This document shows, one piece after another, positions 50,566 to 56,804 of a stretch of DNA of 64,000 nt (positions are counted from its first letter, which is position 1; each line of letters starts with the position of its first letter). The notes below the pieces were generated by a model, which had not been told where the DNA came from, ran no database searches, and saw only the letters and a program-made list of their open reading frames with translations. This DNA comes from Sphingobium sp. (GTDB lineage Bacteria; Pseudomonadota; Alphaproteobacteria; Sphingomonadales; Sphingomonadaceae): contig NZ_JAVHPD010000012.1 in the NCBI RefSeq assembly GCF_036170395.1, forward strand, positions 13,337 through 77,336, in the 5' to 3' direction. The translations under genes were made by a program, and so were the position numbers.

Positions 50566-50970
50566 TTAGGAAAGAGGGTCGGTGAGATGCTGGCGGAACC
50601 AGTCGGCCAGTTCCTCTTCGGAGAGGGTGCCGGCGGCAAAATCCAGCATCGTGCGCGTGGCGTCGGCGGGGTCGAAGCCGATGGCGACCTGGTTCAGCTT
50701 CAGGAACAGGCGCGCGAGAACCCAGCCAGTGCGCTTGTTGCCGTCCACGAAAGGATGGTTGCGAACCACGCCGAACCCATAGGCAGCGGCGAGCGCGCAA
50801 GGATCGTCCTCGCCATAATTCCAGCGATTGATGGGGCGGGCCAGCGCGGATTCCAGCATGGCAAGATCGCGCACGCCCTCGCCGCCGCCATGTTCGGCAA
50901 GCTGGCGATCATGGATGGCGAGCGCGACCTTCCGGTCGATCCAGATCGGCTCCTGCCGGTCTTCGCTCAT
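50566..50970 (-). CDS. doc: Doc/Fic family toxin
   Basis: HPFVDGNKRT Fic/Doc catalytic motif and LESAL.RP. Confidence 0.92.
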   Translation of the reverse strand: MSEDRQEPIWIDRKVALAIHDRQLAEHGGGEGVRDLAMLESALARPINRWNYGEDDPCALAAAYGFGVVRNHPFVDGNKRTGWVLARLFLKLNQVAIGFDPADATRTMLDFAAGTLSEEELADWFRQHLTDPLS

Positions 50971-51198
50971 CTACTTGGCAAGGACGCGCAATATGTCGCG
51001 ATCTTCGCGCATGATCTCCTCGGCCAGCGCCATCTTCGTCTCGAAGTCGGGATCGCCAGCGGTCAGGCGCACGCCTTCCGGCGTTTCGGTGGCATAAAGC
51101 GTGTCGCCCAAGCCGACGCGAAGTTGCGCCAGCAGCTCCTTGGGCAGGATGACGCCGGCGCTGTTGCCGATCCTGGTGATTTTGAGAGGCATGTTCAT
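50971..51198 (-). CDS. AbrB/MazE-fold antitoxin
   Basis: LKITRIGNSAGVILPKE swapped-hairpin motif, abutting doc. Confidence 0.9.
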   Translation of the reverse strand: MNMPLKITRIGNSAGVILPKELLAQLRVGLGDTLYATETPEGVRLTAGDPDFETKMALAEEIMREDRDILRVLAK

Positions 51199-51247
51199 AC
51201 GTGGGTTATAACATGGCGGCTACCTCGGATCAACCATCTTGTAATTT

Positions 51248-51273: not shown

Positions 51274-51528
51274 ATGCAGACCGTCAGCGTATCCGAAACC
51301 CGCTCCAATCTGAAAGCTGTGCTCGACCGTGTAGTGGCCGACAAGGCGCCGATCCAGATCGTGCGGCCCAAGGGCGAAGGCGTGGTGATGATCGCGGAAA
51401 GCGAGTGGGCCGGGATGCAGGAGACGCTGCACCTGCTGGCCTCGCCCGCGAACGCCAGGCATTTGCTGGAGGGCATTGCGGAGTTGGATGCCGGACTTGG
51501 CGAGGAGCATGAGCTGATCGCGCCGTGA
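51274..51528 (+). CDS. yefM: Phd/YefM family antitoxin
   Basis: MQTVSVSETRSNLKAVLDRV...P..I.R..GEGVVMI..SEW..MQETLHLL.SPANA..LLE.I (read from the 51195-51528 frame). Confidence 0.9.
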   Translation: MQTVSVSETRSNLKAVLDRVVADKAPIQIVRPKGEGVVMIAESEWAGMQETLHLLASPANARHLLEGIAELDAGLGEEHELIAP

Positions 51529-51791
51529 AGATCGTCTTTGGGGCTGAGAGCTGGCGCGACTATGTGGCGTGGCAGGCGGAAGACCCCAAGGTGCTGGAAC
51601 GGATCAACGCGCTGATCGGCGAATGCCTGCGCGATCCGTTTCGCGGCCTGGGCAAGCCCGAACCCTTGCGGCAGAATCTGACCGGCTGGTGGTCACGCCG
51701 CATCACCGGCGAGCATCGGCTGGTCTATCGGGTGAGTGGATCGGGCGACACGCAGGCGCTGGAAGTGCTGAGTTGTCGGTATCATTATTGA
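51525..51791 (+). CDS. yoeB: Txe/YoeB family mRNA interferase toxin
   Basis: W.DY..WQ..D, GLGKPEPL, WSRRIT.EHRLVY and C-terminal RYHY. GTGA overlap with the antitoxin. Confidence 0.93.
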   Translation: MKIVFGAESWRDYVAWQAEDPKVLERINALIGECLRDPFRGLGKPEPLRQNLTGWWSRRITGEHRLVYRVSGSGDTQALEVLSCRYHY

Positions 51792-51801
51792 GGGCATCCG
51801 A

Positions 51802-52368
51802 ATGGAAACCACCAATCTAGCTTCAACGTGCATGAACGCTTGGCGGTTCTATGACCTCTCAACCTGCAAGCCATTGGGGTGGGACGCCGCAACTTGGATC
51901 GCGGTTCTTACCGCTTTAGCTTCCTTAGCTTCCTTACTCATATACTGCGGAAGGAAATTGTATCGACGATGGCGTGGAGTTCGGTCCAGCTCATATGTCG
52001 GCGGTAACTTCAGGCGTAGCCGCTTTCGCAATCTATGCCGATCAATTAAGCCGATTATGGATGATAACTATAGGATGTTCTCCAAATTCGGCCCTAACAG
52101 CGGCAGTAGTGAAGGCCTTCCAAAGATCGTTAGGCATGACTTAGGGATATGGTATCAGGTTCGCAATAAAATTTCTGAAAACAATAAGAAAATAGAATAT
52201 CTTATAAAGGAAAACATGACCGCAATACCATTCGAGTTTCGACCGGCCTTCATCCAATGGCTCGATCATATAGATGCATTCAATGCCCATATAATCGACG
52301 ACAAAGCCGACTACAGCCGGAATCAGTTTCCCCGAGATATATCCGCGATCATTTCCCGTCATGCTTAA
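51802..52368 (+). CDS. Hypothetical protein with one N-terminal TM helix, AT-rich
   Basis: 188-aa ORF with TM WIAVLTALASLASLLIYC. Overlaps the next ORF by 8 nt. Confidence 0.7.
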   Translation: METTNLASTCMNAWRFYDLSTCKPLGWDAATWIAVLTALASLASLLIYCGRKLYRRWRGVRSSSYVGGNFRRSRFRNLCRSIKPIMDDNYRMFSKFGPNSGSSEGLPKIVRHDLGIWYQVRNKISENNKKIEYLIKENMTAIPFEFRPAFIQWLDHIDAFNAHIIDDKADYSRNQFPRDISAIISRHA

Positions 52369-52654
52369 GTCTGAAATTGTAGAAATATGGTTGAGGAATT
52401 ATTTCGGCAGCCATTCACTTCCAGTTGTGAAATGTCTGATGTTTGGGTCGATATTACACTCTGAAAATCCGAATGATATTGATATCATCATAGTATTCAA
52501 TGAGTGGGATATTCGAGATTTTATGAGTCAAATAAAAAAATCATTCAAGATAAAATTTAAATTCACTTTAAACGTACAGATATTTCACATTTCTCAAGAC
52601 GAAATTATAAACTTGTTCCTCAAGCGCGCAGCACCAACGCGTGAGATTTTATGA
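52361..52654 (+). CDS. Minimal nucleotidyltransferase (Pol-beta fold, MNT-like)
   Basis: hhFGS-x7-DID-hhh motif (LMFGSILHSENPNDIDIIIVF) and a later strand LNVQIF. 97 aa, very AT-rich. Confidence 0.7.
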   Translation: MLKSEIVEIWLRNYFGSHSLPVVKCLMFGSILHSENPNDIDIIIVFNEWDIRDFMSQIKKSFKIKFKFTLNVQIFHISQDEIINLFLKRAAPTREIL

Positions 52655-53067
52655 CGAAAGATCTATATTATACAATACCACAGTATTTTATCGCGAGAAT
52701 GTTAGAGCATAATTCAGTCATATCTATAGAGGATGTCAGTACGGACGAGTACTTCTTATATCTTGTCCGCCGATCTAAATATGGACATGCGTTGGTATGG
52801 CTTTCAGATGCATACTTGTTTACTGACATGGACTACATCAATCGTCCGGCGCAGCTTAAGTGCGGCGACTACATCGTTATTGCCAAACCAGAAGGGGGCG
52901 GCGGAGCTTCAACAGAACTTATCCAATCTGCAGCTATCGGAGTTGGCAAACTCGCTGATTTTATGGGCGCACTAAACAAGCGCGACATGTGGACCTATGT
53001 CGCGCCGAGCTGGGAAGAGCGGCAAGAGCGGAAAAAGCGCTTCGAGGCCAAGCGGCGCCAATCATAG
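52651..53067 (+). CDS. Hypothetical protein, 138 aa, alpha/beta, family not recognised
   Basis: ATGA overlap with the MNT gene, and the stop sits just before the thiC end. Confidence 0.7.
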   Translation: MTKDLYYTIPQYFIARMLEHNSVISIEDVSTDEYFLYLVRRSKYGHALVWLSDAYLFTDMDYINRPAQLKCGDYIVIAKPEGGGGASTELIQSAAIGVGKLADFMGALNKRDMWTYVAPSWEERQERKKRFEAKRRQS

Positions 53068-53088: not shown

Positions 53089-55023
<1,935 letters not shown>

Positions 55024-55033
55024 TCACGGCGCG

Positions 55034-55146
55034 CTCCCTCCCTACGCCGGTGTCAGCCGGATCAGGTTCAGCGGGTCGCGGCCCCGCCCCTTGTTCAAGG
55101 AAGCCAGCCGCCTCTCAACCGTCTGTGGACGGTCCCCCGGGGATGG
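55034..55146 (-). ncRNA. TPP riboswitch
   Basis: The minus strand contains GGGG...UUGAGA...ACCCGCUGAACCUGAUCCGG...ACCGGCGUAGGGA, directly upstream of thiC. Ends are approximate. Confidence 0.93.
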
Positions 55147-55175
55147 CAGCGGGTGTAGCGCAAGCGGCGGGAGAG

Positions 55176-56804
55176 TTAAAGCCCCTTGCGCCCGAAGCCG
55201 CCGGGCGCGCGACGGCCGAACCCCTGAGACGGCGCCGGCGCGCGGGGCGCGGGGAGCGGATCGGCGCGCGGCGGCGGCGCATCGGCGCGCGGCGGCGCGG
55301 CCGGCGCGGCGGGCAGGTCAGCGCGGGGCGCGGCGGGCGCGCCGCCCAGCCCGTCAAATTCTAGCAGCATCGCCGGCACGCTGCCCTCACCGCGATCCGC
55401 GCGGCTCTCCCCCAGGAAGCAGCGAGTCGATCGGTCGGCGGCGTGATCGCCGATCGTGTCGCCATGGGCGATAACCGGACCGTTGATGAGGAGATAGCGC
55501 AGCACGCCGTTCAGCCGCTCGGCCACCTGCTCCAGCGTGCCCGGCGCGTTCCACAGCTCGACCTCGAACCCGGTGAAGGGCAGCATCCCGCCGGTCGAGA
55601 TGGAGATGGCGTCCGCCTCGATCGAATGGAAGGCAGCCCAGGTCCAGAGCGTGATCGGCACCTCGTCGCTGCCGAGAATCCCGATCTGGCTATGGACGCG
55701 CGCCGCCGGCATGACCGTAGCGACACCCGCGTTGAAGAGGCCGACAAAGCCCGCGCGCTTGGACGCGAGGCCGATCAGCAGCGTCGCGATCTTCGCGGTC
55801 TGGCGCACGTCGACGAAGGGCGCGGCGCGGGTGTCGAGATCGATGCGGATCGCATGATGGATGCGGTGGGTGGCGATGAGGCGCTTGTCGTCTTCGGTAA
55901 GGCCATGGCTGCGCGCCTGCGCCTGGGCGAGCAGATAGGCGGGGAGCGGCGCGGCTTCGGTATCGAGCCGGATGGTCGCCCCGCGCCCGGCGATCACGCC
56001 ATGGCGGATGCCGGTCTCTTCCACCCGCCAGTCGCCGCCGGGGTCGATCGCGTCCATCCCTTCGCGCACCAGCGCCCAATCGAGGATCAGCGGCTGGGTG
56101 GCGAGCAGCACCATCGTCGGCAGCCGATCGGGCTGCGGCTTTTCATGCGCGAAGGCGGGCGGGCGGCTGAGGCCCATGCCGTCGGCGATCTCGCCCATGC
56201 CGCGTTCGTGCAGGATGCGCGCCATGGTCTCGTCCATGCTGCCGAGCGAGAGCGCCTGTTCCTGGCTGAGCCCGGCATAGCGGCGCCCGGCCGGCGGGGC
56301 GGCGGCGGGTGCGGGCGCGGTGACGCGCGCGCCGGCAAAGCTGCTGGCGGGGCGGCCGAACTGGACGATCTTGTCGAAGGCCTCGCCCGCGAGCAGCGCT
56401 TTGGCCGCGCGAACCATGTCCTCCTGCGACAGCCAGCCGCCGCCCGGCTCAAGCTGGCAGAGCGCGCCATCGTCCGGCACCATCACGACCGAGGCGATCA
56501 GCAGCAGCATACGGTGCGCGATCGCGTCGCTTTCCGTGGTCGGGCGGCGAATGTCGAGATGCCAGCTGTGGAGCGGCGCGTCGCTGGACAGCGCTTCGTT
56601 CCGCGCGAACAGTTCGCAAAAGACGACGCTGGCCCCGGTGCGCCCCGCGATCAGCTGCGCGCCATGCCATTGCCCCATGGTTTTGGCGCCGCCGTCATCC
56701 TCCTCGCCGATCTGCCATTTGTAGAGCGGCAGCTGCGCGCCCAGCACCTGACGCAGCGGCGCGATCGGGAAAGGAACGGGCTGAGTGAAGGTGATGATCG
56801 CCAC
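55176..56804 (-). CDS. Hypothetical protein with a C-terminal DUF4261-like domain
   Basis: GGMLPFTGFEVE...L..V..YLL.NGP.I.HGDTIG pattern, ending in a Pro/Ala tail and GFGRK. GTG start. Confidence 0.65.
   Translation of the reverse strand: MAIITFTQPVPFPIAPLRQVLGAQLPLYKWQIGEEDDGGAKTMGQWHGAQLIAGRTGASVVFCELFARNEALSSDAPLHSWHLDIRRPTTESDAIAHRMLLLIASVVMVPDDGALCQLEPGGGWLSQEDMVRAAKALLAGEAFDKIVQFGRPASSFAGARVTAPAPAAAPPAGRRYAGLSQEQALSLGSMDETMARILHERGMGEIADGMGLSRPPAFAHEKPQPDRLPTMVLLATQPLILDWALVREGMDAIDPGGDWRVEETGIRHGVIAGRGATIRLDTEAAPLPAYLLAQAQARSHGLTEDDKRLIATHRIHHAIRIDLDTRAAPFVDVRQTAKIATLLIGLASKRAGFVGLFNAGVATVMPAARVHSQIGILGSDEVPITLWTWAAFHSIEADAISISTGGMLPFTGFEVELWNAPGTLEQVAERLNGVLRYLLINGPVIAHGDTIGDHAADRSTRCFLGESRADRGEGSVPAMLLEFDGLGGAPAAPRADLPAAPAAPPRADAPPPRADPLPAPRAPAPSQGFGRRAPGGFGRKGL

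Follow-up and report, generated by a model that had tools for sequence, protein, structure and literature searches.

Positions 51802 to 53067 of the 64,000-nucleotide (nt) stretch of Sphingobium sp. contig NZ_JAVHPD010000012.1 analysed here (the window) carry three small overlapping genes, A, B and C, between a yefM-yoeB toxin-antitoxin pair and thiC. Gene A (open reading frame 1, ORF1) combines a predicted transmembrane helix with a conserved C-terminal domain (CTD), gene B (ORF2) encodes a minimal nucleotidyltransferase (NTase) of the Pol-beta type, and gene C (ORF3) encodes a small alpha/beta protein. From sequence comparison and structure models, the trio is read as a single conserved conflict system that has three components, moves horizontally and is of the abortive-infection or toxin type, with a probability of about 0.6. 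The trio, its gene fusions, the swapping of its N-terminal heads, its rarity and its low guanine-plus-cytosine (GC) content were observed directly. Coordinates are given in Table 1.

The three ORFs are co-oriented, with an overlap of 8 nt between ORF1 and ORF2 (ATGCTTAA) and of 4 nt between ORF2 and ORF3 (ATGA). yoeB ends at 51791, 10 nt 5' of ORF1, and the ORF3 stop lies 21 nt from the thiC stop at 53089; the trio occupies exactly the space from the yoeB stop to the thiC stop. The GC content of the cassette is 43.7% (ORF1 46.0%, ORF2 33.0%, ORF3 47.5%), compared with 65.5% for the window, and that of yefM-yoeB (63.3%) is host-like. The overlaps, both spacings and the AT-richness relative to the host had been described in the first-pass annotation, made from the sequence alone, and all were found as described. 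The three ORFs are real genes, because intact homologues of all three have been kept across phyla; the trio ranges from Proteobacteria to Bacteroidota.

A profile scan with ORF3 of one genome per prokaryotic species returned 12 loci, from Sphingomonas, Stakelama, Croceicoccus, Siccirubricoccus, Bradyrhizobium, an uncultured alphaproteobacterium and Mucilaginibacter (Bacteroidota). An ORF1-type gene was directly upstream of ORF3 in all 12, with the order kept, and ORF2 was placed between the two by tblastn in 11; the twelfth locus (Mucilaginibacter) has a 107-aa ORF with a GS...DxD motif in the ORF2 slot. The 8-nt and 4-nt overlaps were found again in related loci. A profile search with the CTD gave 345 clusters at E<=1e-3 among 1.84 billion representative proteins, and loci found in this way carry gene C too. 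Representatives of 124 of the 345 clusters were inspected, and 73 of them (59%) have at least 80 residues behind the CTD; the family consensus of this tail shows the NTase GS..DxD motif, so genes A and B are fused in these 73. Wherever the context of a fused A-B gene was fetched, the next gene was an ORF3 homologue, as in Corallococcus (37% identity, E 8e-27) and in the metagenomic loci L029-L032.

Three arrangements of the cassette were thus seen, namely three separate genes, two genes with ORF1 and ORF2 fused, and, in more distant variants, an A-C-B order, seen in L069 and in L034, where the Novosphingobium plasmid pP6W1 carries a gene with an HNH head on the CTD, an ORF3-like gene and an NTase ORF. 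Taken together, the fusions, the permuted gene orders and the strict co-occurrence strongly indicate that the three proteins function jointly. The proposal that the genes form one module, already made in the first-pass annotation, is borne out by their presence together in every locus examined, by their fusion in many lineages and by the retention of the overlapping starts. The 110-aa NTase ORF of the plasmid copy (Novosphingobium sp. P6W pP6W1, NZ_CP030354.1, about 560254-560586; L034 5354-5686) does not appear in PLSDB, whose gene table is known to be incomplete; flanked by the ORF3-like gene and drt3a, it makes up a full A-C-B trio in a DRT3 defence island. Two decayed copies were also recorded, one with a truncated NTase and a DDE transposase gene between the NTase and ORF3 (L007 6756-8735), and one with ORF3 split by an insertion of about 2.1 kb (L022 6001-8508).

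Gene A exchanges its membrane anchor for known cell-killing domains. Among the 124 CTD representatives, the heads recognised by Pfam were TIR_2 (15), SEFIR (12), HNH (6), SMEK_N (4), SIR2_2 (2) and lipase-like domains of the DUF676/PGAP1/LCAT type (2), with one each of EAD1, calcineurin-like phosphoesterase (Metallophos), Endo VII and GAP1-N2. Among the short heads, 48 of 60 have one or two predicted transmembrane segments. In relatives inspected directly, the TIR, SEFIR or SMEK domain is N-terminal, ahead of the CTD. A SMEK head matched the PADLOC model Aga_REase at E 5.7e-49, and SMEK heads are nucleases on short-Argonaute partners (PMC12205087). This range is the standard menu of abortive-infection effectors, and the exchange makes the cassette a probable unnamed anti-phage or toxin-type system. 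The transmembrane helix in the window holds the same position as the TIR, SEFIR, SMEK and HNH heads of relatives, and this speaks for the helix as the part that kills or arrests the cell. A membrane effector had been proposed for this gene from the sequence alone; the placement of the transmembrane part where relatives carry TIR, SEFIR, SIR2, HNH or SMEK fits that role, and the NTase is closely coupled to it.

Table 1. Coordinates of the three-gene cassette, its predicted features and its neighbours in the window
Feature	Coordinates	Strand	Description
Gene A (ORF1)	51802..52368	+	188 aa; ORF call
Gene B (ORF2)	52361..52654	+	97 aa; minimal Pol-beta-type NTase
Gene C (ORF3)	52651..53067	+	138 aa; small alpha/beta protein
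Gene A transmembrane helix, predicted	51886..51954	+	About residues 29-51; hydropathy scan and AlphaFold2 model
Gene A conserved CTD	52009..52365	+	Residues 70-188; alignments
yefM-yoeB toxin-antitoxin pair, neighbour outside the trio	51274..51791	+	Pfam PhdYeFM_antitox E 1.6e-19, YoeB_toxin E 1.5e-34
thiC, convergent neighbour outside the trio	53089..54984	-	Pfam annotation in related loci; tblastn identity 85-90%

For ORF1, 26 homologues were found. The protein has a short head with two conserved cysteines, one hydrophobic helix, an Arg/Lys-rich stretch and a helical domain of 120 aa. A hydropathy scan gave a single segment starting at residue 28, and this segment is helical in the AlphaFold2 model (29 sequences; predicted local distance difference test (pLDDT) 90), where residues 29-60 form one long helix and residues 74-187 a helical bundle. 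The Arg/Lys-rich stretch comes after the hydrophobic helix, suggesting an N-out, C-in topology. In the model the CTD helices are at 74-96, 115-137, 144-165 and 178-187. Alignments of the CTD show many invariant polar positions (N89, R91, R111, W117, N128, H156 and H163) and two that are nearly invariant (D170 and Y171). Because so many polar residues are invariant, the CTD looks like a ligand-binding or active-site domain and less like a passive linker. ORF1 and its CTD gave no match in Pfam, NCBIfam (June 2026), PADLOC or PHROGs, and the CTD had no match in the PDB, either by sequence or by fold.

ORF2 has the signature FGS-x8-DID (G29 S30 ... D39 I40 D41). The first-pass annotation had identified a Pol-beta signature in a protein of only 97 aa, which stands, with a spacing of seven residues, which has to be corrected to eight. 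The Pfam matches are both just below cut-off (Polbeta 24.0 bits, E 4.4e-5, cut-off 26.9; NTP_transf_2 20.2 bits, E 7.9e-4, cut-off 21.0), and the top matches of the ORF2 profile in the PDB are weak hits to NTases of the minimal nucleotidyltransferase (MNT) type (9xbd_E, E 0.015; MntA 5yep, E 0.058). G29, S30, D39 and D41 are kept in 80-84 of 86 aligned NTase sequences, and the residues conserved in an alignment of 87 split and fused NTases are W10, G29, S30, D39, D41, F62, F66, L70, F75 and F86. The next-best conserved positions are 71, usually His in the family, and 79, usually Glu; ORF2 of the window has N71 and Q79, the latter typical of the sphingomonad group. In PADLOC 2023, ORF2 alone of the three proteins gave matches, both weak (PDC-S09, E 1.4e-4; PDC-M63A, E 3.5e-4), and these matches to the PDC-S09 and PDC-M63 candidates probably reflect the shared NTase fold only. 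No NCBIfam model (June 2026) matched ORF2 or ORF3, as for ORF1. As had been expected, none of the profile libraries PADLOC, NCBIfam, PHROGs and Pfam places the trio in a named system or a housekeeping family.

ORF3, with 83 homologues, is the most conserved and slowest-evolving component of the trio. Its AlphaFold2 model (pLDDT 92.4) consists of a helix, three strands, a helix, a strand, a helix, a strand, a helix and a C-terminal helix. The protein gave no match in Pfam, PADLOC or PHROGs, and a fold search of the PDB and of viral models gave nothing at E<=1e-3. The best fold matches were weak (EndoMS/NucS 5gkj_B with probability 0.72 and a template-modelling score of 0.40, EcoT38I at 0.39 and a viral Mrr-like protein at 0.30) and hint faintly at a restriction-endonuclease-like topology. 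The order of secondary structure is compatible with a PD-(D/E)xK core (alpha-beta-beta-beta-alpha-beta). The conserved D53, D73 and K79 do not match an ExK spacing, and the plasmid variant lacks K79. A clear PD-(D/E)xK nuclease was set aside as an identity for ORF3, which has weak fold hints only and no D...(D/E)xK motif. ORF3 has a stretch RRSKYGH, of interest for the Rx4-6H RNase motif of HEPN proteins, but R41 is its only conserved residue and the protein is alpha/beta. Judged by its conservation, ORF3 probably has a core role among the partners, as catalyst or scaffold.

The cassette is rare, at about 1% of genomes: the ORF3 search was positive in 4 of 401 Sphingomonadales genomes and the CTD search in 4 of 401 Pseudomonadota genomes. 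Its GC content is 9-27 points below both flanks in all 12 loci that retain both, and the Mucilaginibacter copy has 30% GC within a host of 43-45%. In eight sphingomonad loci the distance from the end of the cassette to the thiC stop is 0-62 nt; the junction is constant in sphingomonads, with yefM-yoeB, parDE or a DUF2726 gene as the variable neighbour on the upstream side. Outside sphingomonads it was found between polA and a glycogen synthase gene, between trpS and a YgjP-like gene, and between hupB and nuoA. A defence-type neighbourhood had been suggested as a check on the locus, and toxin-antitoxin or defence genes do adjoin the cassette in several loci; it adjoins a prophage in L025, and the plasmid variant adjoins DRT3 reverse transcriptases and a gene with NTase and HEPN domains.

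In 18 same-genus relatives no cassette gene was found within about 1.5 kb on either side of the thiC match, with one locus (L044) too short for certainty. In the nearest relative, alignment with the window stops at 51221 and starts again at 53089; the 387 nt between, with a 121-aa Cys-rich ORF, replace yefM-yoeB and the cassette. In the congener G405 (L066 2359-3420), yefM-yoeB is followed by about 1.1 kb of other cargo up to thiC, coding for a 252-aa LuxR-like protein with a transmembrane segment and a 68-aa Mop-like protein, and homology to the window stops exactly at the yoeB and thiC stop codons. Another congener, G308, has about 1 kb of non-homologous DNA in the yoeB-thiC slot. Mean pairwise identity among the sphingomonad cassettes is 70% for ORF3, 50% for ORF1 and 40% for ORF2, compared with 89% for thiC, and the copies are therefore taken to be old and fast-evolving and not recently spread. 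The distances of cassette and thiC are correlated at r 0.28-0.50, over 8 loci only. These sequence comparisons point to a thiC slot that is old and patchily kept or recombined. The idea of a recent acquisition fits the absence from same-genus genomes and is too simple in view of the deeply diverged copies at the thiC site. The repeated placement at the thiC stop in sphingomonads, with no recombinase and no flanking repeats, poses a small question on how the cassette moves; att-like flanking repeats, a recombinase gene and a structured RNA element belonging to the cassette were sought at the locus, and none was found.

No sigma-70-like promoter was found upstream of ORF1; the only matches were internal, AT-rich and at about chance level. 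The ORF1 promoter may be supplied by yefM-yoeB; the 10-nt spacing fits read-through. A second toxin-antitoxin pair is encoded immediately upstream of yefM-yoeB, at 50566-51198 on the - strand; its toxin is of the Fic/Doc type (134 aa, Pfam Fic E 1e-18) and its antitoxin is MazE/Phd-like (75 aa). With this phd/doc-type pair beside yefM-yoeB, the islet on the thiC side is made up of several small toxin-type modules in a row. On the thiC (-) strand, positions 52979-53006 form a terminator-like hairpin (10-bp stem) that falls in the 3' end of ORF3. The cassette may contain the thiC terminator, and the ORF3 and thiC transcripts, being convergent, probably overlap. As expected, thiC is preceded by a thiamine pyrophosphate (TPP) riboswitch (Rfam RF00059, 59.7 bits; 55022-55149, - strand). 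Beyond thiC, a 542-aa protein with an Ala/Pro-rich low-complexity C-terminus is encoded at 55176-56804 (-), where local GC reaches 78-79%; its position matches that of a gene with a weak DUF4261 match in the related locus L001.

Taken further, and with odds a little short of even, the cassette may be the transmembrane-headed form of an unrecognised, phylum-spanning immune system with two new domains, namely a four-helix adaptor or ligand pocket (the CTD) and ORF3, in which the interchangeable heads would be controlled by the NTase, bound to the adaptor, through protein nucleotidylylation or a Hailong-like guard ligand; some database entries labelled bSEFIR or TIR-domain protein would then belong to it. 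A defence role, a direction of control and a chemistry are proposed here as follows. Gene A would be an effector on the cytoplasmic four-helix CTD, in this strain with a single-pass membrane helix and a small outward-facing head. Gene B would work in physical contact with the CTD; because CTD and NTase are so often fused, action in cis or inside one complex is favoured. B, the CTD and C together would hold the effector in check or sense the trigger. Under one option the NTase would nucleotidylylate a conserved Tyr, in the manner of MntA on HepT, and so silence the head, with Tyr171 of A and Tyr55 of C as candidates. Under the other its product would be a nucleotide or oligonucleotide that occupies the polar pocket of the CTD as a guard ligand, by analogy with HalB and HalA. 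Infection would disturb this control, the CTDs would assemble and the heads would be brought together. Clustering of the single transmembrane helices would be needed to breach the membrane, and here the clustered helices would permeabilise the inner membrane and stop the infected cell. TIR, SEFIR, SIR2 and SMEK heads need oligomerisation in other systems, and the TIR and SIR2 forms of short-Argonaute systems are activated by assembly. The same is reported for SPARDA heads, with activation by assembly into oligomers or filaments (PMC12205087). As the NTase evolves fastest, it may be the component that faces triggers or inhibitors encoded by phages.

Several known systems resemble parts of the cassette. 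The closest functional analogy is Hailong, in which a membrane channel (HalA) and an NTase (HalB) pair a membrane effector with a small NTase, and the poly-dA made by the NTase holds the channel shut, a block that ends when a phage nuclease removes this product (review PMC13434031). Hailong, however, a two-gene operon whose HalB makes protein-linked oligo-dA, has no equivalent of ORF3, the obligatory third gene of the cassette; the head of the trio is interchangeable and its single-pass helix is no obvious channel; the ORF2 profile retrieved no PDB chain named HalB or Hailong at E<=1, and PADLOC scans gave no Hailong match. Cyclic-oligonucleotide-based anti-phage signalling systems (CBASS) likewise place a killing head (transmembrane, TIR, HNH or another nuclease) on a constant domain beside an NTase-fold enzyme, and some fused relatives match the PADLOC model Cyclase faintly (E about 1e-3). 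ORF2 differs in being a 97-aa minimal form and not a CD-NTase, and the cassette has no SAVED, STING, Cap2 or Cap3 domains. Membership of CBASS was rejected on the grounds that no PADLOC CBASS model matches the window proteins and that Pfam finds no SAVED or STING in them. Since effector and NTase are often covalently fused, a freely diffusing messenger is also argued against. Partners of short prokaryotic Argonautes (TIR-, SIR2-, SMEK/DREN- and HNH-APAZ) carry the same interchangeable heads on a constant adaptor; the trio differs in having no Argonaute or APAZ, its constant parts being the four-helix CTD, the minimal NTase and ORF3. The EACC1/TRADD-N and NTase-conflict systems of the Aravind group share similar heads only and differ, by their published descriptions, in the constant parts. 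EACC1 (a single-transmembrane constant component with a caspase partner) and TRADD-N (a domain with variable heads and tails on either side) were rejected as identities, as A and C contain no such Pfam family.

Some results weigh against a mobile conflict system. There were 0 homologues in 50,697 phage records and 1 distant copy in 72,556 plasmids, many copies are flanked by housekeeping genes and not by classical defence islands, and no PADLOC 2023 system was matched, weak NTase-fold matches aside. A strictly conserved third acidic residue is not apparent in the NTase alignment, and the local ORF2 might, from its sequence, bind nucleotides without catalysis as a catalytically altered or binding-only variant. 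The adjoining toxin-antitoxin pairs could equally indicate a plain addiction module. Such a tripartite toxin-antitoxin module would have A as membrane toxin, B as type VII-like nucleotidylylating antitoxin and C as regulator or chaperone, and would stabilise the variable islet on the thiC side with no anti-phage role. The trio does stand in a row of toxin-antitoxin pairs (phd/doc and yefM-yoeB), relatives have parDE or yefM-yoeB at that place, its genes are small, overlapping and low in GC, and its NTase is matched best by MNT antitoxins, MntA among them. The type VII system HepT/MntA also has a minimal Pol-beta NTase of about 100 aa with GS...DxD beside a small helical partner, and control of a toxic partner by nucleotidylylation would be a plausible shared logic. 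The MNT motif is GSx(9-13)DxD, and ORF2 has eight residues between GS and DxD. The trio is, in contrast, three-component, with a helical domain that has swappable heads and is usually fused upstream of the NTase, and with an NTase under the Pfam cut-offs. The heads (TIR, SEFIR, SIR2, HNH, SMEK and EAD1) are immune effectors rather than classical toxins, a HEPN partner was not detected, and fusion of A and B in 59% of clusters poorly suits control by a labile antitoxin. A plain addiction module, the main rival of the conflict-system reading, is considered unlikely. Many toxin-antitoxin systems also defend, and the addiction and defence readings are compatible. The first-pass annotation had found neither flanking ORF to look like a HEPN, AbiEi or Cap protein, and no such family was matched. 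A HEPN identity of ORF1 or ORF3 was rejected (no HEPN family match at E<=1, no Rx4-6H motif detected), as was the CTD as a HEPN domain (probability 0.2 by hhalign against the neighbouring NTase+HEPN protein). AbiE was rejected as well, with no match of the three proteins to DUF1814 (an NTase toxin of about 250-300 aa) or AbiEi (a winged-helix antitoxin) in Pfam, NCBIfam or PADLOC.

The cassette could also be a split, transmembrane-headed relative of the validated single-gene system bSEFIR (Millman et al. 2022), that is, a known family whose extra parts were overlooked. SEFIR-headed relatives (L020, L024-L026 and P0184) carry the SEFIR domain, and in PADLOC SEFIR-headed relatives alone match bSEFIR, strongly so (L020, E 5.8e-33; P0184, E 2.3e-54), the P0184 alignment reaching residue 283, inside the CTD. 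The length of a fused SEFIR-CTD-NTase protein (about 405 aa) is close to the 412 positions of the bSEFIR profile, and the prototype was annotated for its N-terminal SEFIR domain only (Millman et al. 2022). The score, however, comes from the head, and the CTD adds almost nothing to it: P0184, aligned through the CTD, has 183.8 bits and P0144, aligned over the SEFIR part only, 175.8, and a pair of two-domain proteins scores 113.3 and 114.1 bits. The CTD of the window alone matches no PADLOC model at E<=1, the window proteins have no SEFIR or TIR match, and bSEFIR is described as a single gene with no NTase or ORF3 partner. For bSEFIR the PDB contains SEFIR domains only. As a full explanation, kinship with bSEFIR is held to be somewhat less likely than an addiction module. 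Current annotation pipelines probably file part of the CTD family under bSEFIR. An accessory housekeeping role in thiamine metabolism or thiC expression would account for the position at the thiC stop in the eight sphingomonad loci and for the hairpin for the thiC strand within ORF3. This reading is close to refuted, as non-sphingomonad trios lie elsewhere (the polA, trpS and hupB/nuoA sites), also on a plasmid, the 18 same-genus relatives have thiC with no cassette gene in the roughly 1.5 kb around it (one locus being too short for certainty), and the heads are cell-killing domains.

If the conflict-system reading holds and the trio defends against phages, it would be a compact system of 1.3 kb with two uncharacterised protein folds. 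It would represent a new wiring of a minimal NTase to standard immune effectors (TIR, SEFIR, SIR2, nucleases and membrane helices), and it would correct the annotation of the SEFIR- and TIR-headed members, at present taken for single-gene systems. The split, fused and order-permuted forms with their varied heads are a natural series for dissecting how the constant parts switch effectors.

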